Positions 21,671 to 40,417 of a stretch of DNA of 64,000 nucleotides are shown here, piece by piece. Below the pieces are notes generated by a model. The model searched no databases. It was given only the letters and a program-made list of their open reading frames with translations, and was not told the origin of the DNA. The stretch comes from a virus: the UHGV virus genome UHGV-0084588. One strand, written 5' to 3'. How positions within the stretch are numbered: position 1 is the stretch's first letter; every line of letters begins with the position of its first letter. The translations under genes were made by a program, and so were the position numbers.

Positions 21671-21700
21671 ACGACATGTTTTACCTAAAGGAGTATTAAA

Positions 21701-22177
21701 ATGCAATTATCTAACGTCTATCAAGCTGCGCAATTTCATCATGACCTGTCGGCTAAACCTGAACAAATTCGCCACAACTTAACGGTGGCCTGGAAACTGC
21801 TGCGCATCGCAGAAGCCGCACGCCTTAACGATCAGTCAACGATTATCGACACTGTGCGCACATTACATCCAGTTGACCTGGAAACAATCTGGACATTTGA
21901 TTTAACCCGAATTTATCATCGCCGTTTTAATGCGGCGGTTGACGCAATCCGGCCTTACTTTCACCACCTGCGGACAACACGCGAAAATGACACCGCGCTC
22001 GAATGGGTATTGGTACAAAGCGTATGGAGCGACTACATTTATCTCCTTTCTTTAGAGACGGGTGAATGTATCGTTGCTAACGAAGTTTTTTCAAGTAACG
22101 CAGAAATGTATCGTTCCTTCGCGACGATTAAAGGTGAAACACAGCCTATTTTATCACTCACGCACTTAGGGCTATAA
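21701..22177 (+). CDS. Hypothetical protein (158 aa)
   Basis: RBS AAAGGAGTATTAAA-ATG; flanked by terminators on both sides (monocistronic unit). Confidence 0.5.
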   Translation: MQLSNVYQAAQFHHDLSAKPEQIRHNLTVAWKLLRIAEAARLNDQSTIIDTVRTLHPVDLETIWTFDLTRIYHRRFNAAVDAIRPYFHHLRTTRENDTALEWVLVQSVWSDYIYLLSLETGECIVANEVFSSNAEMYRSFATIKGETQPILSLTHLGL

Positions 22178-22185
22178 TTAGCCCG

Positions 22186-22213
22186 GCCCCGTTTATTCGG
22201 GGCTTCTTTTTTT
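22186..22213 (+). terminator. Intrinsic terminator
   Basis: GCCCCG-TTTATT-CGGGGC followed by TTCTTTTTTT. Confidence 0.65.
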
Positions 22214-22233
22214 GATCTAAAAGGAAAGACCAG

Positions 22234-22842
22234 ATGAACGAAATTACCTTAGTTCGTTTTCTTGAAGCGATGCAAAATGCAGAGCGTTTTTCGCATACGC
22301 CTTTATTCATCGACTTAATGGAAGAGGAAGTAGAGGGCTTCCTGGCGTATCCACGCTTACGGGAGTATTTTAAACGTAAAACGCCGAATGCTTACGAAAA
22401 ATTGGTTTACGCACTTGAGAACAGTTCAACATTGTTAACGACGCCTTTCAAGGCGTTGGAGGCTTTAGACCCGGCTGGTACCACAAGTATCCCACAACGT
22501 GTTGTGTTCTACTATATCGACCACGATCGAATTAAAGCCGATGTTGTTAACTGGATCTCTGAAAACGCAGTTCCAGAAACACGCACTTTTAATCTCTGTC
22601 CTGTAGAAGAAGGGTGGAAGGTCGGCAATCACTATTCTTATCCATACCAATCCATTAAATCACCGTTTTTATACCCGGTTTATCTGGACGACGTTACGCC
22701 AGGAAATTGCATTCCGGTAACAAACCTGATCTGTGCACTGACAATGGAAGTCTTAGCCACAAAGGCGGGACAGGTTTGGGTAGAAAACGCGAAGAACATC
22801 GATTATTGGACTTCAATGGGTTATCACCCATATACCAAATAA
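22234..22842 (+). CDS. Hypothetical protein (202 aa)
   Basis: AAAGGAAAG RBS; flanked by terminators; no motif recognised. Confidence 0.5.
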   Translation: MNEITLVRFLEAMQNAERFSHTPLFIDLMEEEVEGFLAYPRLREYFKRKTPNAYEKLVYALENSSTLLTTPFKALEALDPAGTTSIPQRVVFYYIDHDRIKADVVNWISENAVPETRTFNLCPVEEGWKVGNHYSYPYQSIKSPFLYPVYLDDVTPGNCIPVTNLICALTMEVLATKAGQVWVENAKNIDYWTSMGYHPYTK

Positions 22843-22847
22843 CGTTT

Positions 22848-22890
22848 GGGAGAACCTTCGGGTTCTCCCTTCTCTGTTTTTTTTTCTTTT
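22848..22890 (+). terminator. Intrinsic terminator
   Basis: GGGAGAACC-TTCG-GGTTCTCCC followed by a long T tract. Confidence 0.7.
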
Positions 22891-22921
22891 TACACCACAC
22901 TCCGTCTTTATGGAGGTGGGT

Positions 22922-25426
22922 ATGCTAAAAGTTGAACGCATTATACTCAAAGGTTTTACGGGGATGGGATTACATGAAATTGAAACTTTCGATTTCACTA
23001 TCCAGTCTCCAACAACAATTATCCTGGGTGGGAACGGTTGCGGGAAAACCAGTCTACTGTCTGTATTCTTACCCTTAGCACCGGCTAAAACTGAATTCAG
23101 AGACGGCGGTTCTTACACGAACTACTGTTTAGTTGGTGATCAACGGTATCGATTCAAAGTTGCCCGTAAAGGTAACTCTTTGGTTTGCGATATTGAAAAT
23201 CTGACCACGGGAGCAAAGATCGTCGAGCAAGGTAATGCGAAGGTCTACAACTCCCGTGTTGAAGAAATCACGGGTATTACGAAAGAAATTAAAGAACTAT
23301 TAAATGGTGATGTTTTGTTAACCGATGCGGGAACCGAATTACGCCGTAAATGGTTTTACCGTTTAAGTACCTCTGATCTCACATACGCGTTAGGGTTTTA
23401 TCAACGTTTGCGTAAAAACCTTACCGCCTTAAATGGGGGTATTGAAATCACCAGTCGCAAGATTGCCGAATTACGGACGCGTGTTATTGAGAACGAGGAA
23501 GAACGACAACAATTAGCAACGAGATTAAAAGGTCTGGAATCGGATTTACGTGAACTGAACCGAGAAATCGAACAGTTGCCAGGATTAAATCGTGCTGTCA
23601 CGATCGAAACAATCCAAGCGTTATTAAACGGTTTGGGTCCAACCATCGACGCAATATTACAACATCGTGGTGGGTTGCCTACTGATGAACAGATACTGGT
23701 CGCCCGACAAAATGAAGCGACAGCCCGCGAAGCCGTCGTTTCTACCGAAACAGAGGTATCGATGTTGAATAAAGATTTATCGCTATTGATGGATGAGTCA
23801 ACACGACAAGACTACCTGATGCGGAATCACGAAGGTCTCAAGAATACACTGGCACGTTTACGTGAGTTACTTACCAAGTGGGACACCGAACATCTCTTTC
23901 CAGGTTTATTTAACGATAACGTTAATTTAGACCAACTTCGTGCGGCTACCGATGCGCGTGTTTGGGGACAACGGTTGGGGACAACACTGGACGCTATTCA
24001 TTCAACCGAGAAACTCAATGTTTTGGAAGAACGTCTTCTGGTGATGGATCAAAAAACCGCAGGATTACGGGATAGACTCCAGCGAGTGGAGAACGTTTTA
24101 CAGAATTTAAATCACGAGCGTAACCACTACTTAGAAACGGCAGAAGTGGATTGTCCGCAGTGTCGGTTTAAGTTTCGGCCAGGTGTTACGCGTTCTTTAC
24201 CTGAACTCGAGTCATCGATTCGTGGACAACAACAGCAGCGGACGGAACTGCAAACGCAGTTAGAGACTTTATTACGCGATCGTGTTGAATTAGAATCTGA
24301 TGTAACTTATATGCGGCAGGTTCGTGAGATTGTACTGACGTATTCAAAAGACCCTGTATTGAGCATGTTCTTTAAGCGTTTGCAAGAACGTAACGTTTTC
24401 ACAGAGTCTCGCGAGCAGTTCGGGAGTCTATGCGCAGCGTTTGACGGTGAGTTGTACTCTGCTATTGAGTACCATGAAACCCGACAACGGTTAGTGAAAG
24501 CGGAAAAAGAATGGCAGGATGCCGTGGCGGCCGTTGGTAACGTCGATGGTGCTTTACAACAAAAGATCGCCTTCCAACAGTCACGGTTAGGTAAAGCCAC
24601 AGAGATGCTCTCAATGCGTCGTAGAGAGCACGAACTGGCTAACACGACACTTACCTATCTAGTGAATGTTAAACGTGCTGTAGATGATTTCAGTGCGTTA
24701 TTCGAACGGTTAGAGAGTGATGTTAAGGTTACTTTGACAAATACGGTCGTCGAGGAGCTCTTACGAGTGCGGGAAGGGAAGCTGGATGCTTTTACAACTG
24801 CACGCGAACGTTATCGTCAGATGGAAAACGAATTGAATCAGCTCAACAGTTTGGAGCGCGAACTTACAGACTTACAAGCCCAACAGTTCAATAACAAACT
24901 GATGATTCAAGCCTTCTCGCCAGAAAAGGGTGTACTTAGAAAGTATTTTTACAACGCTATCGTTAGAATCACAGAGTTAATGACGCGTTATATCGAACAG
25001 GTCTGGACGTACCCCATGCGCGTTATGCCCTGTGATCTCACTGACGGTGATTTGGATTATACTTTTCCTGTCCAGCTAAAAACGCACCCTGAGCCTGTTC
25101 CTGACGTGCGTAAAGGGTCTAAGGCACAGCGTGCTATATTTAATCTGATGTTCAGACTGACTGCGTACAAAGCGTTGAAGTTGCATCAGTTTCCGTTGCT
25201 TTTGGATGAGCCTTCGGAAGGCATGGACGAGGAGCACCGTAATAACCTGGTCGGCTTTATTAAAACGTTAGCAAACTCGGGAGAATTTTCACAGCTGTTG
25301 GTAGTCTCCCACGAAGCCGAGGTTCATTCTAAACTTAATGAAGCATCGTACTGTGTCATCGAACCGGAAGGAGTGACATTGCCTGCGGTGTATAACGAAG
25401 GAGTAAAAATTGTTTATGCAAACTGA
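22922..25426 (+). CDS. Rad50/SbcC-like (SMC-type) ATPase
   Basis: Walker A ILGGNGCGKTSLLS near the N-terminus, long charged coiled-coil-like middle, C-terminal Walker B/D-loop LLLDEPSEGMDEEH and VVSHEAEV. ATG at 22922 after GGAGGTGGG; the track start 22910 is an alternative codon. Confidence 0.7.
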   Translation: MLKVERIILKGFTGMGLHEIETFDFTIQSPTTIILGGNGCGKTSLLSVFLPLAPAKTEFRDGGSYTNYCLVGDQRYRFKVARKGNSLVCDIENLTTGAKIVEQGNAKVYNSRVEEITGITKEIKELLNGDVLLTDAGTELRRKWFYRLSTSDLTYALGFYQRLRKNLTALNGGIEITSRKIAELRTRVIENEEERQQLATRLKGLESDLRELNREIEQLPGLNRAVTIETIQALLNGLGPTIDAILQHRGGLPTDEQILVARQNEATAREAVVSTETEVSMLNKDLSLLMDESTRQDYLMRNHEGLKNTLARLRELLTKWDTEHLFPGLFNDNVNLDQLRAATDARVWGQRLGTTLDAIHSTEKLNVLEERLLVMDQKTAGLRDRLQRVENVLQNLNHERNHYLETAEVDCPQCRFKFRPGVTRSLPELESSIRGQQQQRTELQTQLETLLRDRVELESDVTYMRQVREIVLTYSKDPVLSMFFKRLQERNVFTESREQFGSLCAAFDGELYSAIEYHETRQRLVKAEKEWQDAVAAVGNVDGALQQKIAFQQSRLGKATEMLSMRRREHELANTTLTYLVNVKRAVDDFSALFERLESDVKVTLTNTVVEELLRVREGKLDAFTTARERYRQMENELNQLNSLERELTDLQAQQFNNKLMIQAFSPEKGVLRKYFYNAIVRITELMTRYIEQVWTYPMRVMPCDLTDGDLDYTFPVQLKTHPEPVPDVRKGSKAQRAIFNLMFRLTAYKALKLHQFPLLLDEPSEGMDEEHRNNLVGFIKTLANSGEFSQLLVVSHEAEVHSKLNEASYCVIEPEGVTLPAVYNEGVKIVYAN

Positions 25427-25595
25427 TTGGTTCCGTCGTTTTATGGACGCGGCGGGGTTTGGTTTCATGTCCATTCTAGCGGTTCTTTATGTCATGTTTT
25501 GCGTGGTGATGATTTTATGGGTAGTTTCATCTTATCTGATTAAACTATCGTGGGGTTCAATTTGGCGTCAACGTGAATGCGAATGGCGGAATTAG
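25416..25595 (+). CDS. Small membrane protein (about 60 aa)
   Basis: Track ORF; one strongly hydrophobic helix (FGFMSILAVLYVMFCVVMILWVVSSYLI); overlaps the ATPase 3' end. Confidence 0.35.
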   Translation: MQTDWFRRFMDAAGFGFMSILAVLYVMFCVVMILWVVSSYLIKLSWGSIWRQRECEWRN

Positions 25596-25606
25596 GAGAA
25601 GGGAAT

Positions 25607-25696
25607 ATGGTTGAAGGGGTTCTGTTAACACTTGGTGCGATGTGGTTAATCGGTAAAGGTTTAAACTTGCTGGTTAAACAACACAGATGGGCGTTT
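25607..25696 (+). CDS. Possible 29-aa hydrophobic peptide
   Basis: AGGAGAAGGGAAT-ATG; MVEGVLLTLGAMWLIGKGLNLLVKQQMGV; below the track size cutoff; speculative. Confidence 0.2.
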
Positions 25697-25762
25697 GAAG
25701 ATTAAACGCCCAAATAATCCGGAAAATACCCTCCGGCGTGAGGGTATTACTAGGAGCAGAAA

Positions 25763-25891
25763 ATGACCTCGATAAACACTACGAATGTAGCGATATCCGC
25801 ATTATACGATGCGGAACTTTCATGGGGTGGATTAATAATCACCACGGCCATATTAGCCGCAGCGGCATTCGTCATCGCGCGTTGGTTTTAA
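25763..25891 (+). CDS. Possible 42-aa tail-anchored membrane peptide
   Basis: TAGGAGCAGAAA-ATG; MTSINTTNVAISALYDAELSWGGLIITTAILAAAAFVIARWF; preferred over the overlapping 67-aa track ORF, which lacks an RBS. Confidence 0.3.
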   Translation: MTSINTTNVAISALYDAELSWGGLIITTAILAAAAFVIARWF

Positions 25892-25916
25892 TTTTACTTT
25901 TTTGCGTCTCTAAGGT

Positions 25917-26366
25917 TTGCAAATGGAAATTTATTTGTTGAACGCATCTTCTAAAGTCGGCGAACGACAAGCTGCCGATTTACTCAAACTACACTACCGT
26001 TACTTGGACCACCAGGCTACATTACTAAAAATCAAAACGTCGGTACCGAAATTAAAAGCTCGACAACTGATCGAAGGTAACTGCATAGTTCTGGTGTATC
26101 AGGATGATGTCGCGGTAGGATACTGTAGTTATCGGAATCGTAACGGTTCACTTAAGATACGTTCGGTATACGTGCTCCCAGACTATCGTCAGCGGGGTGT
26201 AATGAAAGAGATTTTCAAAGCAATTGCCGCCGATGAAGTTTTCGGTGAAATTGTTACTGGCATGTATGCGAAATGTAAAGAAGCAAAAGAGTATTTCATC
26301 CGACGCGGTTATCAGGCGGTTTACTCACACGATCGTGAGTGGGTCGATTTTAGCAAAACATTCTAA
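25917..26366 (+). CDS. GNAT-family N-acetyltransferase (putative)
   Basis: 149 aa; motif-A-like VLPDYRQRGVMKEIFKAI in the expected position for the acetyl-CoA binding loop. Confidence 0.5.
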   Translation: MQMEIYLLNASSKVGERQAADLLKLHYRYLDHQATLLKIKTSVPKLKARQLIEGNCIVLVYQDDVAVGYCSYRNRNGSLKIRSVYVLPDYRQRGVMKEIFKAIAADEVFGEIVTGMYAKCKEAKEYFIRRGYQAVYSHDREWVDFSKTF

Positions 26367-26432
26367 AACAATAAAAGCTCTCTTGGCGTACCTCACTATG
26401 AGTGTGAGAAATTTACGTCAGGAGAGCTAATT

Positions 26433-26678
26433 ATGTTAAAATCGTACGGAGTGGGTGGTTTGGATACGAGTATTTGTTGGAAAGAATACGAACGTGCAAA
26501 AGCGTTCTTACAACATCCCAATGTAGGGACAATAGGTAAGGTCTGTTTCGGCAAACCTACGTTGACAGCTTGTATCCAAGGGGCTTTAGGAACGTTGCCA
26601 CCCGAAACACATTTCGAGCCTGAGGAGAATACGAATGTTCACAGAGAACCCATCAATTTACGGCATACCGTTGAATGA
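26433..26678 (+). CDS. Hypothetical protein (81 aa)
   Basis: CAGGAGAGCTAATT-ATG RBS. Confidence 0.4.
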   Translation: MLKSYGVGGLDTSICWKEYERAKAFLQHPNVGTIGKVCFGKPTLTACIQGALGTLPPETHFEPEENTNVHREPINLRHTVE

Positions 26679-27003
26679 AATTGACATTCTACAAATTTGT
26701 TATCAGTGCGACGACTTTGGTAACACGCAGGTAACAGAGCTAGTTAAGCTTTTAGGTTACTTACCTGAAATCGAGCTACCTTTTGTTAAACCCAGCTTGG
26801 TTCGTCGTGCATCGTGTCGCGAAGCTTATTTGTTGTGGAAACACAATATTTCAGTAGAGAAGGTCTGGGACCGCATGAACGATCATCAGTTCCGTGAACA
26901 GGTTGTGCACACGCTCAATTTGGCACTGACTATGCAACGGCTGGGCTTACAACACGAAGGTTTAGAAGCGGCGGTCAAACAATGGATTACAAAAAATCGC
27001 TAA
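26635..27003 (+). CDS. Hypothetical protein (122 aa)
   Basis: GGAGAATACGA-ATG RBS; overlaps the upstream gene by 44 nt. Confidence 0.45.
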   Translation: MFTENPSIYGIPLNEIDILQICYQCDDFGNTQVTELVKLLGYLPEIELPFVKPSLVRRASCREAYLLWKHNISVEKVWDRMNDHQFREQVVHTLNLALTMQRLGLQHEGLEAAVKQWITKNR

Positions 27004-27090
27004 TGGGTAAAACATATATCGCTATACTTGTCGAGCTATCAATCGGCGGTACACGTTTTAATACTACACATCAACTACGGCCGATTCGTT

Positions 27091-27588
27091 ATGTTAACGG
27101 TACGTAAAGAATCTGAAATTGGTAACGATCTTTTTAATGCGCCCGAAGACTATAAAGTCGTTACCATTAACTGTGTAGGAGCAATGGGTCGCGGTATTGC
27201 GCTGGCGTGCCGTGAACGCTACCCCAACCTTTATCAAGATTACCGTAAGCGGTGTCGCGAAGACGAAATTAAGATTGGAAGTGTTTACGTTTACCCTGAT
27301 GAAAAGTGCATCTTGCTCCCCACGAAAACACATTGGCGTTTAAAGTCCCAGGTTTCTTATGTTACTGCGGGCATTACCGCATTAGCAGATTGTATTGAAG
27401 AACTGGATACCAGCGTTGCTATCCCTCCACTGGGAATGGCAAATGGGTGGTTAGATTCCTGGGAAAGACAAGAAATCTTCTTGTGGCTTTACAAAAAACT
27501 TGAACCGAGGAGGCAACGCTACACGTTATACTTACCCGATAAGCTGTACCGAGAAGCAGAGTCATTAATTCCAAACTCTTTTAAATAG
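27091..27588 (+). CDS. Macro domain protein, TARG1/OARD1/DarG-like (putative ADP-ribose hydrolase)
   Basis: VVTINCVGAMGRGIALACRERYP ... LPTKTHWRLK ... VAIPPLGMANGWLDSWE aligns by eye with recalled TARG1 segments ([22 protein letters not shown] ... KKRASHKPT ... LSMPRIGCGLDRLQWE). Track start 27028 is TTG; first ATG is 27091. Confidence 0.6.
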   Translation: MLTVRKESEIGNDLFNAPEDYKVVTINCVGAMGRGIALACRERYPNLYQDYRKRCREDEIKIGSVYVYPDEKCILLPTKTHWRLKSQVSYVTAGITALADCIEELDTSVAIPPLGMANGWLDSWERQEIFLWLYKKLEPRRQRYTLYLPDKLYREAESLIPNSFK

Positions 27589-27604
27589 ATATTATCATTA
27601 GGGC
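27586..27604 (+). promoter_or_regulatory. Promoter-like motif ATAGATATTATCATTAGGG
   Basis: AGATATTATC core shared with 37068 and 46181; immediately after the macro gene stop, upstream of the SLT gene. Confidence 0.35.
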
Positions 27605-27688
27605 ACACAACAAAGGAGTATTAGCTGTCCGCGCCGTCATTTCGTCTTACGGAATACGGAAATGTATAAATCCAACTGGAGAAACAAA

Positions 27689-28387
27689 ATGTTTCGTATC
27701 TTCTTTCTTTTACTGGTAACACTTTTCGCGTTTAACGCACAGGCGTCAACGTCAACGCCGCAAACTAAACATCAGCGTGAATTTACACAAATCCAACATC
27801 GGTTCGAAAAGGTCAGTCCGTTAATTGTGGAAATCTCACGAAAGCAAGGCGTTGATCCTAAGCTGATGATTACGCTGATTTATCGCGAATCGCGTTTTGA
27901 TCCCAAGGCTTACAACAAAAGCACACGAGCGCACAGCCTAGTACAGATGCTTCCAAGTACCAAGCGCAATCTGCTAAAGCTTTATGGAAAAGAATTAGGT
28001 CTTAGTCAGAACGCTGATTTGTATAATCCGCGTAACGCTGTTTTGCTGGCTACCGCGTATGTTAAACATCTTGAGAAGGGGTTAACCAAACGACTCAAAC
28101 GCAAGCCCACCATGGCTGAAGTTGCGTTAGCTTACCACTGGGGTGAAAGTGGCGCTCACACGCGAATCAAAAGCAAATCTCGAGCAGCACAACGAGAAAT
28201 GGCAGGCTTTATGAAAGACGCCGCGTTCTATAGCGCGAAAATCGATGTGCCTGTTGTTGTGGGCTCGGCCCCACGTCAGCTTGCGTTTGCGAAGAAAACA
28301 CCACGTCAGATTCAATTGGCGGAAGTTAGTAAAATTTGGGATACGATAAACACGAGTTTTCCAATCAATAGAGGAGTTACCCTTTGA
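27689..28387 (+). CDS. Secreted lytic transglycosylase (SLT domain), candidate endolysin
   Basis: Signal peptide MFRIFFLLLVTLFAFNAQA; SLT catalytic region LIYRESRFDPKAYNKSTRAHSLVQMLPST (E-S ... S ... A ... LxQ pattern). Alternative upstream ATG at 27662. Confidence 0.6.
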   Translation: MFRIFFLLLVTLFAFNAQASTSTPQTKHQREFTQIQHRFEKVSPLIVEISRKQGVDPKLMITLIYRESRFDPKAYNKSTRAHSLVQMLPSTKRNLLKLYGKELGLSQNADLYNPRNAVLLATAYVKHLEKGLTKRLKRKPTMAEVALAYHWGESGAHTRIKSKSRAAQREMAGFMKDAAFYSAKIDVPVVVGSAPRQLAFAKKTPRQIQLAEVSKIWDTINTSFPINRGVTL

Positions 28388-28893: not shown

Positions 28894-28897
28894 TCTC

Positions 28898-28938
28898 TAC
28901 CCCTTACCCTTTACGGAGTAAGGGGTAATTTTATTTTC
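28898..28938 (+). terminator. Intrinsic terminator
   Basis: TACCCCTTAC ... GTAAGGGGTA 10-bp stem followed by ATTTTATTTTC. Confidence 0.6.
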
Positions 28939-28959
28939 ATTCCCTAAAGGAACAGAGAT

Positions 28960-29439: not shown

Positions 29440-29492
29440 CTTTTTACATAACCCTTAGTTGATTTGAACAAACCTAAAAGAGGACTATTAAA

Positions 29493-30425
29493 ATGACTTT
29501 TCCATCTGAAGTAATTTACGAACTGGCTAACACTCTACGTCGTCGTTATAGCTACCATATGCTGCAAACCAGCGTAGGTCCAACCGCTGCTTTTCTGCGT
29601 AACCATTTCCTAGGCAGCAATCAGTCTTCAATTACGCAGGAAACGATTTTCTCTATCGATCGTACCACCGATATTCTTCCGATTGACTGTGCAATTGCGG
29701 TTCAAAATGGGGATACGTTCAACTTCGCCATGGGAATGCGCCATACAACCGTTACTGTTGACCCAAGCGTGGGGATCGAACATTCTTTCATGCGTAATCC
29801 GTATCCACTGTCGGATAACTGGTTCGTTGTTGTAGAACAAGGCGTGAATAAGTACGAAGTTGTTGCGGCGCACGACGAATCTTTCTTTGGTTTGGGGGAG
29901 ATTTCACGTCCCCTGGAAATTGCTCTCGAACTTCGACAGGGTAATATCGGATTAAATGGGGGTGTTGTCTACTTCATCCTGAGCAACTGGGCGCATGTGA
30001 GCCACGTCCTGAGAAAAGCTGACGCAACGTTCCATGCAACAAAAGTAAGTTACTTCTCCGCTGAGAATAAAGTTCAAGACGAAGAAGAAACAGTACCTGG
30101 CACAGAAGTCGCCGTTTGTGAAAACTACGACGATCTGAAATCTGTACTCGTTAAGCGTGATGTTTTCGAATCGTTAAACCTGGATTTCCCTGGTGACGAA
30201 AATGAAATATCCGTAGCTGATCTGGTAGAAGCATTGTGTCAGAAAGACCAAGCTAACGAAATTAGCGACGAAGAAGCGGAACTCTTCCAAGTTCAACAAC
30301 TCGTCAGCAAGGTTATCGGTGGCCAGGAAATCGTTGACACCCTTATGGCTTTACCGCCGAAGAAACGTACTCAAAAGTACATTCGTGAACTGGTTCTTGA
30401 CAAGCTGGGCCAAACCAAAAAATAA
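29493..30425 (+). CDS. Hypothetical protein (310 aa), paralog of 30487..31035
   Basis: Shares MxFPSE N-terminus and the VYFI(L/F)..W..V motif with the next gene; acidic C-terminal tail; same AGGAGTATTAAA-ATG type initiation region. Confidence 0.5.
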   Translation: MTFPSEVIYELANTLRRRYSYHMLQTSVGPTAAFLRNHFLGSNQSSITQETIFSIDRTTDILPIDCAIAVQNGDTFNFAMGMRHTTVTVDPSVGIEHSFMRNPYPLSDNWFVVVEQGVNKYEVVAAHDESFFGLGEISRPLEIALELRQGNIGLNGGVVYFILSNWAHVSHVLRKADATFHATKVSYFSAENKVQDEEETVPGTEVAVCENYDDLKSVLVKRDVFESLNLDFPGDENEISVADLVEALCQKDQANEISDEEAELFQVQQLVSKVIGGQEIVDTLMALPPKKRTQKYIRELVLDKLGQTKK

Positions 30426-30433
30426 TCTAAGAC

Positions 30434-30466
30434 CCCTACTCCTCCGGGAGTAGGGTTAATTCTTTT
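30434..30466 (+). terminator. Intrinsic terminator (CCCTACTCC family)
   Basis: CCCTACTCC-TCCG-GGAGTAGGG followed by TTAATTCTTTTT. Confidence 0.7.
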
Positions 30467-30486
30467 TCCATCTTAGGAGTATTAAA

Positions 30487-31035
30487 ATGTTTCCATCGTC
30501 TGAATATTTAACTCATCTGGCTTACGGTATTCGCCGTGGTTCTGTTTTCCGCACACGTTTAAAGGATATAAATTTCCTGGCTAATTTCTTATATAACCAT
30601 TTTGGTGATGGAACTAACGTTTACAAAAAGATCACCTCAACACAACTTTATTCCCTTATAGCGGCGTCTGAAATCGTACCTACAGATATTTGGCGATTCA
30701 AACGTTATAACGGAGATATTACAATCAGTTTTCTTGATCATTCCCCTATTACCGTTGAAATCGCCGATCGTATTGACATTAATAGTGAAATGTCTGGTTG
30801 GAAGATTCTGTTTGATTGTGGCAATCGTTATGCGGTACTTGGCTCCTCTGATGAACGTGACTTCCCATTCGACAGGCCCTACTATTACCTTAGCGAAGAT
30901 GATTTCCCGGATAAAGAATCCAATATCTATTTAAACGGGGATACCGTTTACTTCATTTTTCGTACTTGGAACGACGTTGCTGCTATGATTGCTCAAGGCG
31001 TCATCGATTACCGTAAGCTAGAAGTCGACATTTAA
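30487..31035 (+). CDS. Hypothetical protein (182 aa), paralog of 29493..30425
   Basis: MFPSSEY... and DTVYFIFRTWNDVAAMI resemble the upstream gene; flanked by CCCTACTCC-type terminators. Confidence 0.5.
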   Translation: MFPSSEYLTHLAYGIRRGSVFRTRLKDINFLANFLYNHFGDGTNVYKKITSTQLYSLIAASEIVPTDIWRFKRYNGDITISFLDHSPITVEIADRIDINSEMSGWKILFDCGNRYAVLGSSDERDFPFDRPYYYLSEDDFPDKESNIYLNGDTVYFIFRTWNDVAAMIAQGVIDYRKLEVDI

Positions 31036-31045
31036 AATAAAAGCT

Positions 31046-31078
31046 ACCCTACTCCTTCTGGAGTAGGGTAATCTTTTT
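31046..31078. terminator. Bidirectional intrinsic terminator (CCCTACTCC family)
   Basis: TACCCTACTCC-TTCT-GGAGTAGGGTA with A-run upstream and T-run downstream, between convergent genes. Confidence 0.7.
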
Positions 31079-31700: not shown

Positions 31701-31703
31701 TCA

Positions 31704-33077: not shown

Positions 33078-33102
33078 AATTAAAAATACTCCGAGGTGAG
33101 CA

Positions 33103-33606: not shown

Positions 33607-33609
33607 TTG

Positions 33610-34065
33610 ATGAAAATGCTATTATTCATCATGGTAGTGTTCGTGGGGTTGGTGAGTAATAGCTACGGTGACGAAGTTGAACGTCCAGCTTATAGGCCAC
33701 TGGAGCTTCCTCCTGAACCACCAATAATGGTGAATTGGAAAATTGACAAGAATGCAATGCGTGAGTATGTTGCAGATGTCAACACCTATGCTTATTACGT
33801 TTATGTCTACACACGAAATTTAAACCAGCAAGCCGCTAAACGTGGCTGGAGTCCACCAATGTTGGCTCCACTTTGTGAACGCTATGAGTTACCGAAATTA
33901 CACGTTGTACCTGAGCGCTTGTCTCTTGATGAGGGTTCTTTAACAGCCCAAGAGATTAGCCGTGATTTATCGCGTAAACTCAATAATTTGTTGTGGAATT
34001 ACCGTTCCGACCGTCAGGCACTGCTCGATTCGTATAACCAATACTTGACATCGTGTTTGTACTGA
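33610..34065 (+). CDS. Secreted protein (signal peptide, no lipobox)
   Basis: ATG at 33610 after AAGGAG (track start 33607 is TTG); MKMLLFIMVVFVGLVSNSYG signal; PPEPP motif; terminator follows. Confidence 0.45.
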   Translation: MKMLLFIMVVFVGLVSNSYGDEVERPAYRPLELPPEPPIMVNWKIDKNAMREYVADVNTYAYYVYVYTRNLNQQAAKRGWSPPMLAPLCERYELPKLHVVPERLSLDEGSLTAQEISRDLSRKLNNLLWNYRSDRQALLDSYNQYLTSCLY

Positions 34066-34069
34066 CACT

Positions 34070-34111
34070 CCCTCCTGTACCCTTCGTGGTACAGGAGGGT
34101 CTTTCTTTTTA
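34070..34111 (+). terminator. Intrinsic terminator
   Basis: CCCTCCTGTACC-CTTCGT-GGTACAGGAGGG followed by TCTTTCTTTTT. Confidence 0.7.
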
Positions 34112-34154
34112 ACGTTTACGACTATTTTAATGTAGACTAACAGGAGAATTCAAC

Positions 34155-34889
34155 ATGACCTACCCAAAAATTATCACCCCGTACACACCGACGTTGGTTA
34201 TTGGTGCCGATGTAGAAACCAAATCGTTACGCCCCGATGCTTATCTGTTGAGTGCAGGATTAGTGGCGTTTGACGTCCCTACCTTGAAAATGGTTGGTTC
34301 CTCATACATCCGTATCGATCCTAACGATCCTAAAGCAAAAGCTATTTTCCACGAAGACCCACAAACGGTTGGATGGTGGGAAGGTAAAGGCGAACCTGAA
34401 TACGCACCGTCTCGTGAAGCCTATGCGGAAGCATGGGGTGGAACAACAGCATTGCCTGATGCTCTGTGGGCGATGCAAAAATGGCTCGGGGAGATCACCG
34501 CAAAACATGAGTTTGTTATTACCATGCGCGGTCCCGACTTCGATGCGCCGATTTTCATGAACGCTTTCGCACAGTGCGATATTCCGCCAGGGAAGTTCCG
34601 TAAATTTAGTGCGCTGGATAGCGATCGCACCGCAGAGCGTTTAGCCTTTGCGTTTGGTTTCGAACCCGACTTAACGGTAGAGCAAGTTTATTGGACGCGC
34701 GGTAAGCCCGCTTTTGAGCACCACGCAATGTGGGATGCAGCAAAAGAAGCCTACACCACGGCACGTATTTATCACCTCGCTTTGGTCACCCGCCAATACG
34801 GGTTTGAACGCGCCAAAGCCTGTCACGAAGAACTGAAAACTGGCGAGTATGTTGCGCCGCAGATTCGTGATCAATTAACCAGGGATTAA
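34155..34889 (+). CDS. DEDDh-type 3'-5' exonuclease (DnaQ/RNase T-like)
   Basis: 244 aa; ExoI-like VIGADVETKS (D-x-E), ExoIII-like EHHAMWDAAKEAY (H-x-A-x-x-D). Confidence 0.6.
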   Translation: MTYPKIITPYTPTLVIGADVETKSLRPDAYLLSAGLVAFDVPTLKMVGSSYIRIDPNDPKAKAIFHEDPQTVGWWEGKGEPEYAPSREAYAEAWGGTTALPDALWAMQKWLGEITAKHEFVITMRGPDFDAPIFMNAFAQCDIPPGKFRKFSALDSDRTAERLAFAFGFEPDLTVEQVYWTRGKPAFEHHAMWDAAKEAYTTARIYHLALVTRQYGFERAKACHEELKTGEYVAPQIRDQLTRD

Positions 34890-34891
34890 GA

Positions 34892-36412
34892 ATGAAGAAC
34901 GTTGATGTTGCAGTAATTTACACGGACGGTAGCCATTTGACCTCCCCGCTCGGTACAGGGGCGGGGATTCATGGATACTTATTTAATCGTGAAGCGATTG
35001 AGGATGGTCGGGTTTACCGCCATCCCACTATTCCAGAGGGGATTACGACGTCAGGATACCGCCAGATAAACAAGGATGAAAAACTTCCGCCTTTACCAGA
35101 AACCGTGGAGTTTATTGACGGCGTTGTTCCTGTACCAAAAATGTCACACTCCGACGTTGCAGAACTCGTGGCTTTCCTGACCGTCTTCGAACACGCCCCC
35201 TTCGTTGCCAAAAACTACGTTATCTATATCGACGCATCTTACGTTGTCAACACGTATAACGACTGGATCGATGGTTGGGCAGCACGTGGTTGGCGTCGTG
35301 CGGACGGTACACCTATTGCGAATCTGGAATTAATCCAACGGATGTGGGAGGTTAAACATCGCTTAAAGAAAGAAGGGAAAGGTGTTCGTGTCCTTAAAAT
35401 TAAAGGCCACTCTGGACGTTATGGAAACGAACGCGCAGACGAGTTAGCGCGGAAAGGCTCAATTATCTCTGCCCGAGGGGAGGGGTTAGACTATACACCG
35501 TATTGGTCAAAAGACGAGCTGCCTGAGGAAGAACAGCAACCGGAAGTTGTTGGTGAGGGTGTCAATTTGTCCGCTTTCCCCGATATCTGTGTTACGAAGT
35601 TCTGTTACCCGATGGTGAACGAACCCCATCCCACTGTTACAGTTAACGGTAATAAACTTTATTACATGTTCGGTGGAAACCACGCAAAACAGAAGGACGA
35701 TATCGTCTTCGTTGGTAAGTACATTCCAGATGCACAATTCTGCGTAATGTTTACCAAAGAACCGTGGGATAACGTATACGAGTTGGTAAATACCCATTCT
35801 GCGAAAGCGTGGGAAGGGGTGCCCCGTTTACGTCAATTTGATCCTATCGCCGTTGTTTTTAACTTATTCGTAAAGCGTAAGAAGTTCGCAGAAGCCGCTG
35901 CTAACGGCATTCCTATCGATCGGATGCATTTTAGCGAAGACAAAAACCTGTGGATGTTTGAAGATCTTTCGATTACACGAATTCTTCGTCCTGCGCTATT
36001 ATCTTATCGTTGTATTGCGATTCGTGATGAGCTTGCAGGTTGGTTACGCGATGCCATGGAAGGGAAAAACTCAGTAGTGTTGAATGACATTACTGACGTA
36101 CTTTACGATGAGAAAGGTAAGCCGAAGAAAGACATTTATCGTAACGTAGATAAAGGTTTTGACGTAACCATCCAGATCCCTGGTAGTAAAAACAAGGTTA
36201 AAGCTATCCTTACTCGAGGTATCGACATACCGACGCGTACGGAAATCAACCGTATCAAAGAACCGGAAGGGCGGTTCTACGTGGCTGTACGTCGTCCAGA
36301 ACGGCAGTATATCGAATACGCGTTGGTTTATATCGGGGAAAAATATCATGGTTTGTGGTGCGGCTATTATTCAAACAAACGAATATTGACGGATAAGGAG
36401 CTTGAATGCTGA
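34892..36412 (+). CDS. RNase HI domain protein with about 300-aa C-terminal extension
   Basis: VAVIYTDGSHL..., IDASYVVNTYNDWIDGWAARGWRRADGTPIANLELIQRMW, KIKGHSGRYGNERADELARKG match the RNase HI catalytic motifs (recalled E. coli: TDGSCLGNPGPGG ... KGHAGHPENERCDELAR). Confidence 0.8.
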   Translation: MKNVDVAVIYTDGSHLTSPLGTGAGIHGYLFNREAIEDGRVYRHPTIPEGITTSGYRQINKDEKLPPLPETVEFIDGVVPVPKMSHSDVAELVAFLTVFEHAPFVAKNYVIYIDASYVVNTYNDWIDGWAARGWRRADGTPIANLELIQRMWEVKHRLKKEGKGVRVLKIKGHSGRYGNERADELARKGSIISARGEGLDYTPYWSKDELPEEEQQPEVVGEGVNLSAFPDICVTKFCYPMVNEPHPTVTVNGNKLYYMFGGNHAKQKDDIVFVGKYIPDAQFCVMFTKEPWDNVYELVNTHSAKAWEGVPRLRQFDPIAVVFNLFVKRKKFAEAAANGIPIDRMHFSEDKNLWMFEDLSITRILRPALLSYRCIAIRDELAGWLRDAMEGKNSVVLNDITDVLYDEKGKPKKDIYRNVDKGFDVTIQIPGSKNKVKAILTRGIDIPTRTEINRIKEPEGRFYVAVRRPERQYIEYALVYIGEKYHGLWCGYYSNKRILTDKELEC

Positions 36413-37074
36413 TCGTTTATAGTGAGGTCTTGTCAAAAGCCCCTCGGTTTTTACAAACTCACTTTATGTATAACGCACGGCAGTATTGGGGCTTTAAAGC
36501 CCCTTACTCCGAAGATTGGGAAGTTGTGGAAAAGTTAGCATTTGTGTTTTCTCTTTCGTTGTTGTGGGAGATCATTGCACTATACAACGCGGGTTGTGAT
36601 ATCCCTGAGAACGGCTTTTTCCAACAACACCTATTCCAAAAATTCACAGCATCGATAGAAAATCATGAAGTACGCAAGGAGTGTATCGGCTACGCAGAGC
36701 ATTCTGAAGAATTGAGAAAGATTTCCAAATTAGTTATCACGCGGGCATGGGCTGAATTCGAAACTTACCCCGAAAAAATAATTTGGTTTAATCGTGAACA
36801 GTTTATTAAAGAGGCAGTCAGTCAACATCCCGTTCGATTAATCGTGTTAAAGCCGTCCGATCTTGCCTTACGCCGTGTCTATTCGTTTCCAGAGGAAATC
36901 ATTTTTTCCGCAGGAACAGCAGATTATGGTATTTTTAAGCAAGGTGATTCTTGGATTCTTCCGCACGACTTAGACCAGTATTTGCTCAATAGCGATCAAA
37001 TACATTCGGGTTATGACTCACAGGTGAAGGAGTTTACAGTCGATCCTTTTTTCGCTAAAAATATTCTTAGATAG
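36406..37074 (+). CDS. Hypothetical protein (222 aa)
   Basis: Track ORF; start overlaps the RNase H stop (ATGCTGA). Confidence 0.4.
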   Translation: MLIVYSEVLSKAPRFLQTHFMYNARQYWGFKAPYSEDWEVVEKLAFVFSLSLLWEIIALYNAGCDIPENGFFQQHLFQKFTASIENHEVRKECIGYAEHSEELRKISKLVITRAWAEFETYPEKIIWFNREQFIKEAVSQHPVRLIVLKPSDLALRRVYSFPEEIIFSAGTADYGIFKQGDSWILPHDLDQYLLNSDQIHSGYDSQVKEFTVDPFFAKNILR

Positions 37075-37088
37075 ATATTATCCAGGTG
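37068..37088 (+). promoter_or_regulatory. Promoter-like motif TAGATAGATATTATCCAGGTG
   Basis: AGATATTATC core; about 40 nt upstream of the ATG at 37111. Confidence 0.35.
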
Positions 37089-37110
37089 TAACACCATTGG
37101 AGTTATTAAA

Positions 37111-37848
37111 ATGCTAAAAGTTTATGTCCCTCAATTACAACGTATCAATCCCTCGTTGTTCGAGGGAATCTTTTATAAAATTTGGCCACAATACTTCAAT
37201 GAACATTTGAAGGACCCGAAGTGGTCAACCGCACAAGGAGAATTCTTTTATACCGCACAGACTGCCTGCACAAACGTCTTTACTCGTTTCATCGCTGAGG
37301 TTATTGACGCTGTCAATACCAACCGAAACTTTGACCTTCGTGACGTCGTAATAGATCTCTCTGGGATCTTCGATAACTACGATTGCGATGATGCTGTGTT
37401 CGAACATTTCTCTTCTGAAGATGTCTGGGAGGCCGTTTATCAATGGCTAGAATACTACGTAAACCTTCTGCTCTCTCCAGAGATGTTAGAAAATTTCAAT
37501 AAAGCACTCTTTCCCATTTATATCGACTTAATGAACGTTAAGCGGACAAAGAACCTCGTTGGTTTCTGGTTTTCGACCTACGATGCTGAAAGCAGATTGT
37601 GGGAAAAAGAAATGATTGCTTTTGGTATCGAGCGCGGCGATTACGATGAATTATATCGAGGGTATTGGCCCTTCGATCGTCACGAAAACGGCTATTGCGG
37701 CAATCCGTACTTGTGGTCTTTTTATTTCTGTAATCAGACCGGTGTTATTTATCTTGAAGACACTGGTGTGCAAATTCCTAACGGTGCTGATGTAACATAC
37801 TGCCAGTTACGTAAAGACCGAGACGACATCATTTATCAGGGCTATTAA
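37111..37848 (+). CDS. Hypothetical protein (245 aa)
   Basis: TGGAGTTATTAAA-ATG; preceded by promoter-like AGATATTATC motif. Confidence 0.45.
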   Translation: MLKVYVPQLQRINPSLFEGIFYKIWPQYFNEHLKDPKWSTAQGEFFYTAQTACTNVFTRFIAEVIDAVNTNRNFDLRDVVIDLSGIFDNYDCDDAVFEHFSSEDVWEAVYQWLEYYVNLLLSPEMLENFNKALFPIYIDLMNVKRTKNLVGFWFSTYDAESRLWEKEMIAFGIERGDYDELYRGYWPFDRHENGYCGNPYLWSFYFCNQTGVIYLEDTGVQIPNGADVTYCQLRKDRDDIIYQGY

Positions 37849-37849
37849 C

Positions 37850-38392
37850 ATGAAAATACTTATCGATTTCTCACTCAGCGAGTCACGGGACAAATTAAAC
37901 AAGGTGTTAAGTGAAATGCGTAGTCGTGTTGCGTTTGAATTACACGATGCAATAGCAGTGCATGAGAACAAGATTTCTGAAGAACACGATGGTGCTGATA
38001 TTACTATCCTGGATTCAGAAGAGATGGTGAATAACCTCGTTGAGCAGTTAGTGATAAAAATCAGTTCGGCCATGACATACCCGCATTTAGTGCAGGTAAC
38101 TGATCCCGATACCGATATTCGCCTGATTCTTGAGAAAGCCTTTCTACATGCCGCGCATTACTTACAGAATAATGCTCCAGATACCCTCGACGAAGTGTAC
38201 GTCGCAATATTGCAGCGCCAATCTTCAACGACGGATATAATAGACACAACATGTTGGAGCGATATTCTTACCAACGAAACGATGTCCCGTATCCGGGATA
38301 TTTTCCTTGAGACACTCGGGTTAGTTGAGAAAATCTGTCATGCTGAGCTCATCTACCTATCGTCAAAATACGGACAACCTAAAGGAGTATAA
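37850..38392 (+). CDS. Hypothetical protein (180 aa)
   Basis: Track ORF, start 2 nt after the upstream stop. Confidence 0.45.
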   Translation: MKILIDFSLSESRDKLNKVLSEMRSRVAFELHDAIAVHENKISEEHDGADITILDSEEMVNNLVEQLVIKISSAMTYPHLVQVTDPDTDIRLILEKAFLHAAHYLQNNAPDTLDEVYVAILQRQSSTTDIIDTTCWSDILTNETMSRIRDIFLETLGLVEKICHAELIYLSSKYGQPKGV

Positions 38393-38394
38393 CC

Positions 38395-38919
38395 GTGGAT
38401 ATTTTAATTCAGCTTCGTAAGAAAACAACCATTGCCACGCCGATAGCGTTAGAGGAGAAAATCTCTGGCGCGGTTGCACGCAAGCTCTGTGGTGCCCACG
38501 GCTTTAGCGACCATCAGGAGCGGGTCGTTACTGCCGCCACATTACACAACTTACGACACACAGTTCATTACTGTTTAGTTGACAACGTCACCATCACTCT
38601 TGATGATAACGTAAAGGTCGACCAACTGCGACGCGAAATTGTCCACAAGATCGAGTCTTACAATAGACGTTTCGATCGGGCGTGTGCGCGTTTAACTGAT
38701 GACGAGGCTCTACGAAAACGTTTGAAACTTGAAATTGAGTATGCGGCGCAACGTTACGGGATTGGCGGTACCGAACCGTGTCTGACTGAACAAGAAATCA
38801 CGTTAGCAATCGAGGTTTATACCACTCTCTGCTGCGTCATCCTAAAAGAGACCAACCACGAAATTACAAAAGCGTTGTTAAACACCGCAGACAAACTCTC
38901 CCCAATTTTAGGACAATAA
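38395..38919 (+). CDS. Hypothetical protein (174 aa)
   Basis: GTG start after AAAGGAGTATAACC. Confidence 0.45.
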   Translation: MDILIQLRKKTTIATPIALEEKISGAVARKLCGAHGFSDHQERVVTAATLHNLRHTVHYCLVDNVTITLDDNVKVDQLRREIVHKIESYNRRFDRACARLTDDEALRKRLKLEIEYAAQRYGIGGTEPCLTEQEITLAIEVYTTLCCVILKETNHEITKALLNTADKLSPILGQ

Positions 38920-38920
38920 A

Positions 38921-39406
38921 ATGAACGTAAATGCAATTATCAATCTCTCTAATAGCGACATTGTCCACGAGTTTCTGAACCACTGCGATCGCACAGAACA
39001 GTCTATCCGTAACTTGTTAGCTCCGAAAACAGTGGATGCCATTTGGATAGCTTCACAGGCAGCGGGCGTTATCGTTGCAAGATATCGCGCGACATTGCTA
39101 ATGAATCTGGACAATTTCTTCGATCAGCCAGGGCTTATTACATGGACTTCTATCGGGCGTCGGTTTTACGACATCCGTATCGAAACCCTACGCTCGATAA
39201 TTAATGGCTGGCACAACGGGTATATGCCTGACGTAACAGTACCCTACACTGCTCCCGAATGGCGACGCTTTTATAGTCAGATATGGAGTAATGAAAGCGT
39301 TTATCATGAAATAGTGGCACTTATCAGTGCCGACCAAAGCCAACTTGCATACCAGCTATGGGAGTGGCTAAAAGCTAATTATCCTGATTACGTCAAAATC
39401 GACTAA
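38921..39406 (+). CDS. Hypothetical protein (161 aa)
   Basis: Track ORF; terminator 39412..39445 follows. Confidence 0.45.
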   Translation: MNVNAIINLSNSDIVHEFLNHCDRTEQSIRNLLAPKTVDAIWIASQAAGVIVARYRATLLMNLDNFFDQPGLITWTSIGRRFYDIRIETLRSIINGWHNGYMPDVTVPYTAPEWRRFYSQIWSNESVYHEIVALISADQSQLAYQLWEWLKANYPDYVKID

Positions 39407-39411
39407 CACCC

Positions 39412-39445
39412 ACCCTAGCTTCGGCTAGGGTAACTTTATTTTTAA
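39412..39445 (+). terminator. Intrinsic terminator
   Basis: ACCCTAGC-TTCG-GCTAGGGT followed by AACTTTATTTTT. Confidence 0.65.
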
Positions 39446-39465
39446 CCATTTTAGGAGAATATGCC

Positions 39466-40392
39466 ATGTATTTGTACAAAAGTAAAAAAGTAAAAGGTAT
39501 TAAAGACTGCCTTAGACAAATGGGGAGTCAGCATCTAGAAAATGTCATGGAAGAAAATCAAACAAAAGAAAATCCCGTCTCGAAGTGGATAAAAAAGAAT
39601 CGTAAGCATTTAACTAATGCCTTTATACCCTACGACGCTGAGTTAGGCCTCAAAGATCCCCGTTCTCTTCACGCTCAAACATTGGCAATTGGATGGCTAT
39701 ACGGTGGTGCTTCCTTAATATCCGATCGAGCACTTAGAGAACTTGTTTTCGAGACTGAGATGCCCAGTAAATTCCCTGAAGAGTGGTTAGACTTTATACC
39801 TACTTGGACTGTAGCAATCGATGTAGGTAAAGAAGATGAGACTTTCTTTCTCGGTTATCGAAAAAATAGGAATAGAAGGTTTATTATAATCGCTACAAAT
39901 ACTGATTACGGGTTAACAGAAGGCGTTACCACGATCGCCACCTGCTCGTTAGAGATATGTAGTGTTGGAAACGGGCTTGTTGAAATCGATTATACGACTG
40001 GCGTACAGACCGAACAAGAGAAGACGTTATGGTTATCACTGGCTAAGACCGCCATATCGTTGATATTTCTCTGTACGCTAATCCCGCCTAATCTCAGAGG
40101 GTCTTTCAATGACATTAAGTTCAAAGAAATCAAAAAGAATGGTAGCATAAGTCACGAAATCAAACCTCGTGAACGTGACGTTAAAATAGACATCACGCCA
40201 GGACAAGTGAAATATCTAAAGGGATTTAACACCGACTTGAAAACCATGGAAGGTATCAAACACGCCAAGGCTGCACATATTCGTCGCGCACACTGGCGCA
40301 GATATTGGGTCGGTCCAAGAGATGGGGAAAGGAAGAGAAAACTTTACTGGATTCCGCCTACATTTGTCCGTGGCTACGTACCCCACAATTAA
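39466..40392 (+). CDS. Hypothetical protein (308 aa), paralog pair with basic Trp-rich C-terminal motif
   Basis: C-terminus AAHIRRAHWRRYWVGPRDGERKRKLYWIPPTFVRGY; internal GWLYGGASLISDRALREL; AGGAGAAT RBS. Confidence 0.5.
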   Translation: MYLYKSKKVKGIKDCLRQMGSQHLENVMEENQTKENPVSKWIKKNRKHLTNAFIPYDAELGLKDPRSLHAQTLAIGWLYGGASLISDRALRELVFETEMPSKFPEEWLDFIPTWTVAIDVGKEDETFFLGYRKNRNRRFIIIATNTDYGLTEGVTTIATCSLEICSVGNGLVEIDYTTGVQTEQEKTLWLSLAKTAISLIFLCTLIPPNLRGSFNDIKFKEIKKNGSISHEIKPRERDVKIDITPGQVKYLKGFNTDLKTMEGIKHAKAAHIRRAHWRRYWVGPRDGERKRKLYWIPPTFVRGYVPHN

Positions 40393-40417
40393 GCTAAAAG
40401 TGTTTAGGAGCATTAAA

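Follow-up and report, generated by a model that had tools for sequence, protein, structure and literature searches.

The nine-nucleotide core ATTAAAATG occurs five times on the + strand of the window (the whole 64,000-nt stretch of DNA that was analysed) and not at all on the - strand, and all five copies stand at genuine gene starts, those at 21701, 29493, 30487, 37111 and 40418. We consider it quite probable that the five blocks are ordinary Shine-Dalgarno (SD) sites of five independently translated genes, and that their identity comes from duplication, from a preference for A and U, and from coincidence or drift. The window is part of a jumbo phage like SPN3US and phiEaH2, with relatives in human-gut metagenomes, and the five genes, of unknown function, would belong to its non-structural part.

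Position and form of the five sites

The exact form AGGAGYATTAAAATG is present three times, at 21689-21703, 30475-30489 and 40406-40420, and is accompanied by the variant AGGACTATTAAAATG at 29481-29495 and the variant GGAGTTATTAAAATG at 37099-37113. All five ATG coordinates in the preliminary description proved correct, and its starting point for the block, 21686, should be moved to 21689. Taken along the + strand, each with its ATG, the ribosome-binding site AGGAGTATTAAA (21689..21703) opens g21701 (21701-22177, 158 aa; PHROG 8115, function unknown); AGGACTATTAAA (29481..29495) opens g29493 (29493-30425, 310 aa; PHROG 11818); AGGAGTATTAAA again (30475..30489) opens g30487 (30487-31035, 182 aa), a paralogue of g29493; GGAGTTATTAAA (37099..37113) opens g37111 (37111-37848, 245 aa; PHROG 8219); and AGGAGCATTAAA (40406..40420) opens g40418 (40418-41317, 299 aa; PHROG 6160), a paralogue of g39466. 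The open reading frames thus run from 158 to 310 aa, four of the five have PHROG families, and for all five genes the orthologues in related phages use the same ATG as their start. Near-variants, also on the + strand, precede three further genes: TATTAAC with the ATG of g37850 (37843..37852), AGGACAATAAA with that of g38921 (38910..38923) and GGAGTTTAAA with that of g54442 (54432..54444). There is no reverse-complement copy in the window at two or fewer mismatches that could act as an antisense partner. An Rfam scan of the whole window at the gathering score and a tRNA scan gave no match.

Each of the five sites has between 25 and 68 nt of free intergenic DNA on its 5' side, and the sites therefore cannot depend on translational coupling. 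The g21701 site lies 68 nt past the preceding gene, directly 3' of a terminator-like hairpin (21643-21663), and the g40418 site lies 25 nt past the stop codon of g39466. A Pfam search with the five proteins returned no match, nor did a PDB sequence search with the g21701, g29493, g37111 and g40418 proteins; since the five proteins are without an assigned function, no argument about expression level can be built on what they do.

The blocks have the sequence features by which an SD site is recognized, namely a purine-rich core complementary to the anti-SD sequence CCUCC, placed about 5-9 nt 5' of the ATG of a conserved open reading frame. Three sites have AGGAG as their core, one has AGGA and one GGAG, and the distance from core to ATG is 7-8 nt at all five. 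The 3' end of 16S rRNA would pair with the purine core, after which come a spacer of 7-8 nt made of A and U only and then the AUG. Duplex energies of the five cores with ACCUCCUUA, an anti-SD sequence that may not be the host's, lie between -5.8 and -8.2 kcal/mol. Predicted local structure is weaker at the five sites than at the other starts (mean MFE -4.4 versus -7.2 kcal/mol, p = 0.05), and by a crude initiation-energy score they rank 1, 12, 15, 19 and 22 of 64 (one-sided p = 0.01). The block amounts to the SD, the spacer and the AUG of normal sites that, by these predictions, would perform better than the average start.

SD initiation regions with an A/U-rich spacer are canonical in enterobacteria and their phages. 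The sites described here have the same purine core, the same 7-8 nt spacer of A and U only, with A at -3 to -1, the AUG of a conserved open reading frame and low local structure; they differ only in that one exact hexamer is used five times among 64 starts, and nothing essential is different. The T7 gene 10 leader ("epsilon") and other A/U-rich enhancers are bound by ribosomal protein S1 and raise initiation. They too place A/U-rich sequence close to the SD, but such enhancers sit upstream of it, whereas the block shared here is the spacer between SD and AUG.

Recurrence of the hexamer at gene starts

The five-fold recurrence exceeds what composition alone would produce. The exact form AGGAGYATTAAAATG, observed three times, has an expectation of 0.00 over 100 shuffles. 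When any hexamer at -6 to -1 was allowed to count, five copies were reached in 2 of 20,000 column shuffles of 64 starts, in 1 of 50,000 for the 58 starts with an SD ending at least 6 nt upstream, and in none of 20,000 for the 42 starts with a free intergenic gap. A first-order Markov null with the five copies kept in its training gave P = 0.0064, and counting the paralogue pair g29493/g30487 once gave P = 0.00125; over the gene-start nulls as a whole, the chance of any hexamer reaching five copies ranges from 2e-5 to 6e-3. With the five sites left out of the model, 0.12-0.19 copies of the hexamer are expected and 5 are observed. The preliminary description would have been refuted by a frequency no greater than an AT-rich spacer behind a consensus SD would give; the observed frequency is greater.

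Ten starts have only A or T at -6 to -1, and five of the ten read ATTAAA, while other hexamers equally rich in A/T do not recur. This excess, larger than composition predicts, is one of the observations that speak against treating the sites as ordinary. ATTAAA is found at none of 174 phiEaH2 gene starts and at 1 of 56 SPN3US gene starts, and no hexamer recurs to a comparable degree in either set. The same 15-mer is also present in at least 120 viral contigs, which marks the string as generic; the 80 among the matches listed are all other, unrelated contigs with one match each. A pairwise-similarity test on the 15-nt sites is not relied on, since at that length the column-shuffle null is too liberal, a common SD register raising similarity even without the five sites.

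Might the recurrence be pure coincidence, a pattern picked out afterward from many possible patterns and windows? We think this unlikely, although some of the figures lean that way: the bare 9-mer ATTAAAATG, counted on both strands, is only mildly unusual (1.26 copies expected, with 3 of 100 shuffles holding five or more), the strictest gene-start null stands at P = 0.006 and that with the paralogues taken as one at P = 0.00125, and sister genomes carry anywhere from 1 to 4 copies. The remaining gene-start nulls, at 2e-5 to 1e-4, argue against it, as does the absence of similar recurrence among the phiEaH2 and SPN3US starts.

Duplication and spacer variation among relatives

The preliminary description took reuse of the block as a sign either of duplicated expression cassettes or of a translational enhancer. 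Duplication accounts for one pair. The genes g29493 and g30487 lie in tandem and are paralogues of each other (30% identity, E = 1e-12); their ribosome-binding sites and first codons still match (29481-29510 versus 30475-30504), as do the terminator hairpins 3' of each (30434-30465 versus 31047-31078, 81% identity). The g30487 site comes after the first hairpin, placed at 30434-30455, and the second, at 31047-31068, follows g30487. A single tandem duplication would have carried along site, gene start and terminator hairpin together. Beyond this pair the cassette idea does not hold: an alignment of the 80 nt on either side of all five sites shows nothing in common except ATTAAAATG and part of the SD, and since the flanks cannot be aligned, the five sites are not duplicated cassettes as a set. 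In an all-against-all BLASTP of the window proteins, g21701, g37111 and g40418 are not related to one another.

The comparison with relatives covers 11 close relatives over the syntenic 21.5 kb, in which each genome has between 1 and 4 exact copies and the motif has not arisen at any further gene. At g40418 the spacer takes five forms (CATTAAA, TATTAAA, TATTTAA, TATTATA and AATTATA), which differ at -6 to -1 by exchanges between A and T alone and have C, T or A at -7. The g30487 site has lost one A in L146 and L149, giving TATTAA-ATG, and in L002 it reads AGGAATATTAAA. At g37111 five of ten relatives carry an allele without the motif, GGAGTTA(A/G)TCACC-ATG, and more distant phages have GTATGTA or GTATCAA. 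The g29493 site is unchanged in 11 genomes, but the whole block of roughly 130 nt around it is invariant as well. The orthologue of g21701 in L133 and L134 has AGGAGAATTAAAATG, and in phiEaH2 and SPN3US the motif is absent at this gene. A further point against ordinary sites is that ATTAAA has been kept at g21701, g29493 and g30487 in most or all of the clade members sampled, although the whole upstream regions are conserved there as well. Since close relatives do not keep the exact spacer, the comparison speaks against an enhancer that depends on the exact sequence and in favor of a preference for composition, that is, for a spacer that is A/U-rich and unstructured. What persists across relatives is an A/T-only, weakly structured spacer at a good distance, in other words an ordinary strong site.

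We infer efficient initiation at these sites, with selection on their composition and openness and not on the exact hexamer. This A/T-richer lineage would favor a weakly structured spacer of A and U only, with A at -3 to -1; such a preference narrows the usable sequence space, and the identity that duplication leaves over may be coincidence or drift inside that space. Understood in this way the recurrence matters little. At most, a lineage of gut jumbo phages has a favored ribosome-binding sequence, one that might be put to use where expression constructs for the host need strong initiation.

Other accounts of the block and neighboring features

Short repeats at gene starts could also have to do with the exchange of genes. 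Conserved boundary sequences have been proposed for lambdoid phages, and T4-type phages have PeSL cassettes, units of stem-loop and promoter that measure tens of nucleotides and are conserved between copies. Both are short regulatory repeats bordering independently exchanged genes, as the present sites may be; in contrast to PeSLs, just 9-15 nt are common here, and the flanks, hairpins included, differ except in the g29493/g30487 pair. It is improbable, in our judgment, that the shared site marks, or would serve as, a short boundary homology for the exchange of gene modules between related phages. Identity to relatives does jump no farther than about 25-90 nt from the start codons of g29493, g37111 and g40418, and from those of the near-variants g37850, g38395 and g38921; from 36.4 to 41.3 kb all gene boundaries are junctions of this kind, and in L144 the context switches immediately 5' of the g40418 SD. 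But junctions also fall at the motif-free boundaries 25923, 26635, 36406 and 39466, and their presence near three of four motif starts, as against 7 of 25 others, though suggestive, falls short of significance and is confounded by position. The break points at g29493 flank the conserved block of about 130 nt and not the motif, the partner allele at g37111 has no motif, and a stretch of 9-15 nt offers very little length for homologous exchange. Junctions come to lie at gene borders through selection against chimeric genes alone.

It is also improbable that (U)AUUAAAAUG forms, on several early mRNAs, an operator whose specific sequence is recognized by a post-transcriptional regulator that the phage itself encodes. 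This suggestion proceeds by analogy with T4, where RegA attaches to A+U-rich sites that lie at the AUG or immediately 5' of it and RegB, with S1, cleaves GGAG followed by an A-rich tract, strong RegB sites having the form GGAGRAYARAA (PMC3014915). Specific recognition would explain why one hexamer recurs and others equally rich in A and U do not. The excess of the hexamer is specific to gene starts, two operons that each begin with a conserved early-promoter-like motif contain four of the five genes between them, and the T4 RegA operators are likewise A+U-rich, unstructured and overlapping the AUG (PMC3014915); the RegA and RegB signals, too, lie across the region from SD to AUG of several early mRNAs. 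Unlike the T4 signals, however, the exact sequence is not maintained at orthologous genes, as the variants of g40418, g37111 and g30487 in close relatives show, and nothing 3' of the ATG is conserved among the five sites. With one mismatch or none allowed, GGAGRAYARAA has 6 matches in the window where 7.9 are expected, and the five sites are not among them. The 58 window proteins were found to include no member of the RegA, RegB or any other family of RNA-binding regulators, and the 170 kb of phiEaH2 that were examined have none annotated. We hold out equally slight prospects for recognition of (U)AUUAAAAUG on a subset of early mRNAs by a translational regulator or nuclease of the phage or by a ribosome-remodeling factor. 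If it were true, it would suggest that SPN3US-like phages control their early genes at a post-transcriptional level, which has not been described.

That the block is a promoter element is scarcely credible, whether it be taken for the -10 box of host sigma-70 or for a promoter of a jumbo-phage RNA polymerase. The TAAAAT within the motif is similar to TATAAT, and one site (29465-29494) passes a loose sigma-70 scan, yet the other four are missing from that scan's list, sigma-70-like matches are rarer in the region than in shuffles (27 versus 35.5), and a transcript starting about 7 nt downstream would begin inside the gene. Late promoters of phiKZ have the consensus T(-3)ATG(+1), with TATG at the start site, and early promoters of jumbo phages have an AT-rich motif of about 10 nt, centered near -10 and upstream of operons (PMC7598289). 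The block here contains no such late TATG, sits between SD and AUG, and is absent from all the structural genes of the - strand; the conserved early-promoter-like motif of the phage group is a different sequence, AGATATTATC, located elsewhere.

Some features of the region, observed in passing, should be of more use in annotating these phages than the recurrence of the five sites. They are the conserved early-promoter-like motif AGATATTATC in the phage group; a gene-by-gene mosaicism from 36.4 to 41.3 kb; and, at 27597-27688, a structured leader RNA. The conserved promoter-like motif stands at 37068-37082, and the first gene after it is g37111.

Recurrence of the initiation block

A block made up of a Shine-Dalgarno (SD) core, an A/T spacer ending in ATTAAA and an ATG occurs in its exact form, AGGAGYATTAAAATG, at 21689, 30475 and 40406 and as the variants AGGACTATTAAAATG at 29481 and GGAGTTATTAAAATG at 37099, all on the + strand; the common core, ATTAAAATG, has five copies on the + strand of the window and none on the - strand. 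Every copy marks the start of a real gene (g21701, g29493, g30487, g37111 and g40418, each named by the position of its start ATG), with open reading frames (ORFs) of 158-310 aa, and orthologues begin at the same ATG. Four of these five genes fall in PHROG families of unknown function. The longest ORF around 40418 opens at 40322; ATG 40418 is nevertheless the likely start of g40418, since it has an SD, follows the stop codon of the upstream paralogue by 25 nt and agrees with the orthologue starts.

The five-fold reuse of this block, put forward in the preliminary description with a motif count against shuffled controls as the check, is statistically real. As a bare 9-mer the core shows a modest excess (5 copies versus 1.26 expected; 3 of 100 shuffles reach 5), and the excess is clear at gene starts. 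Among 64 starts defined by a simple ORF and SD rule and compared at positions -6 to -1, any hexamer recurred five times in 2 of 20000 column shufflings, in 1 of 50000 when only starts with the SD outside the hexamer were used, and in 0 of 20000 when the comparison was confined to the 42 starts preceded by free intergenic DNA. A first-order model, deliberately conservative because the five copies stay in its training set, gives P = 0.0064; with the paralogue pair counted once, P = 0.00125. The leave-five-out expectation for ATTAAA is 0.12-0.19 copies, and A/T-only hexamers occur at 10 starts, half of them ATTAAA. In an identical procedure, no hexamer recurred beyond expectation among 174 starts of phiEaH2 and 56 of SPN3US, where ATTAAA was found 0 times and once, respectively. 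The recurrence is therefore real and specific to this lineage, and we regard pure coincidence as a slim possibility.

On the strength of gene content (giant virion proteins, an SbcC-like protein, an RNase H-like ribonuclease, a UvsX-like recombinase, thymidylate synthase and an SLT transglycosylase) and of synteny with SPN3US (at 164-205 kb) and phiEaH2, we assign the window, with a G+C content of about 45%, to an SPN3US/phiEaH2-like jumbo phage. Phages of this group encode their own multisubunit RNA polymerases. The GenBank phage collection held no close match at the DNA level, only short stretches of 74-77% identity. Close relatives are represented by IMG/VR contigs of about 225 kb and, at loci L143-L152, by assembled contigs of about 222-229 kb from several metagenome projects, human gut metagenome being the label of at least one record; with 97-99% protein identity to the window, even the best match in IMG/VR is not identical to it.

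Ribosome-binding properties, duplication and conservation

We think it most likely that the five blocks are ordinary strong ribosome-binding sites with a common, favoured A/U-only spacer, the sharing of which would be due in part to one duplication, that of g29493 and g30487; features of this type are known already. Each site has 25-68 nt of non-coding DNA upstream and an SD-to-ATG spacing of 7-8 nt, and the predicted folding of -30 to +30 is weaker than at other starts (-4.4 versus -7.2 kcal/mol, p = 0.05). By a crude initiation score summing SD pairing, start codon, spacing and unfolding, the sites rank 1, 12, 15, 19 and 22 of 64 (p = 0.01), so that in these predictions they look like good, but not uniquely strong, ribosome-binding sites.

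The suggestion that the sites are duplicated expression cassettes holds for g29493 and g30487 only. These are the only kin among the five proteins (30% identity, E = 1e-12), and they have their first codons in common as well (29481-29510 and 30475-30504); downstream of each is a hairpin with an identical 9-bp stem (CCCTACTCC/GGAGTAGGG; 30434-30455 and 31047-31068, on either side of g30487). In this pair, site, gene and hairpin make up one tandemly duplicated unit. For the five sites as a set the suggestion fails: alignment of 80 nt on either side finds nothing in common except the SD and ATTAAAATG, and the contexts differ, with a terminator-like hairpin before g21701 and likewise g30487, a conserved promoter-like motif before g37111, and g40418 coming after the stop codon of its paralogue.

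Four of the motif genes were compared in 11 genomes of the clade, and g21701 in 4. The g29493 block is retained throughout, but it sits in a segment of about 130 nt with no variation anywhere along its length. At g21701, ATTAAA is retained in the sister lineage, with T changed to A at -7; at g30487 it is retained in most genomes, the SD having a G to A change in L002 and the spacer lacking one A in L146 and L149. There are two alleles at g37111, ATTAAA in 6 genomes (the window among them) and A(A/G)TCACC in 5, and more distant phages have other sequences; the spacer of g40418 appears as CATTAAA, TATTAAA, TATTTAA, TATTATA and AATTATA. Exact motif copies in the syntenic 21.5 kb number from 1 to 4 per genome, and no gain at any other gene was found there. 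The exact sequence varies at g40418 and g30487 while A/T-only composition and approximate spacing persist, although the non-motif allele of g37111 shows that the A/T-only spacer is not always kept. Such variation would be expected of a ribosome-binding site constrained in composition and structure, but not of a sequence-specific operator.

Alternative readings of the motif

The motif was also considered as a promoter. Sigma-70-like matches are fewer than shuffling predicts; the phiKZ late promoter consensus, T(-3)ATG(+1) (PMC7598289), is absent; and early promoters in such phages, located upstream of operons, consist of AT-rich motifs around -10 (PMC7598289), the early-type motif here being a different sequence, AGATATTATC. 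Post-transcriptional control of the kind exerted by RegA or RegB would draw on a resemblance that is only generic: T4 RegA acts at unstructured, A+U-rich sites that overlap the AUG, and strong RegB sites read GGAGRAYARAA (PMC3014915), but the RegB consensus shows no enrichment, a search of the window proteins turned up no such family, and the motif sequence is not conserved among relatives.

The motif might instead supply boundary homology for the exchange of gene modules. Identity to relatives does shift abruptly close to many gene starts, three of the four motif starts covered among them, as it does at every boundary from 36.4 to 41.3 kb; however, such junctions are common at non-motif starts too, their association with the motif is not significant (3/4 versus 7/25), and the break points at g29493 flank a longer conserved block.

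Neighboring features

Sequence 36400-41320 forms a gene-by-gene mosaic: in comparison with sister genomes (L002, L003, L007 and L144), identity alternates between about 50-65% and 90-98%, with switches at nearly every gene start. The gene at 38395-38919 is missing from L003, and in L144 a replacement of the neighbor upstream of g40418 extends as far as the SD. In L147, the g29493 orthologue is interrupted near position 4588 (contig CYGL01000001.1; an ORF of 133 codons versus about 310); either a pseudogene or faulty assembly may account for this. Further paralogues are g16167/g16733/g17929 (16167-18705), g39466/g40418 (39466-41317) and the pair of giant virion proteins (1394 and 1440 aa; 3696-12213, - strand). 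Another ribosome-binding sequence that recurs, AGGAGAATAT(A/G)CCATGT, marks the starts of g16167 (16154-16170) and g39466 (39453-39469), whose proteins are unrelated, with a weaker copy at g50444 (50431-50447). Similar G+C-rich terminator-like hairpins flank g21701 at 21643-21663 and 22185-22204 (stems GGCCCCGG...CCGGGGTC and GGCCCCG...CGGGGCT, a T run after each), and the hairpin at 31047-31068, situated between convergent genes, resembles a bidirectional terminator.

The promoter-like motif, (A/C)(G/A)A(T/C)AGATATTATC, stands upstream of + strand gene blocks at 27582-27596, 37068-37082 and 46181-46195, with copies of a variant, CAGATATATATTAC, at 15000-15030 and 19350-19380 (+). GATATTATC is kept at the orthologous positions of every close relative and also of SPN3US (L128) and phiEaH2 (L129), even where downstream protein identity falls to 24-40%. 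By analogy, the motif is compatible with the AT-rich early (virion RNA polymerase) promoters described for RNA polymerase-encoding jumbo phages (PMC7598289). Between it and ATG 27689, the start of an SLT transglycosylase with a signal peptide, lies a conserved, apparently structured leader of about 90 nt (27597-27688, +), which is represented in the phage group by eight sequence variants, has no match in Rfam and may be a regulatory leader RNA. Two helices are predicted, a hairpin and GGGCA/UGUCC, the latter enclosing AAGGAG, which resembles an SD but is followed by no start codon; RNAalifold finds five pairs with compensatory changes, four in the hairpin and one in a short third stem immediately ahead of the true SD.
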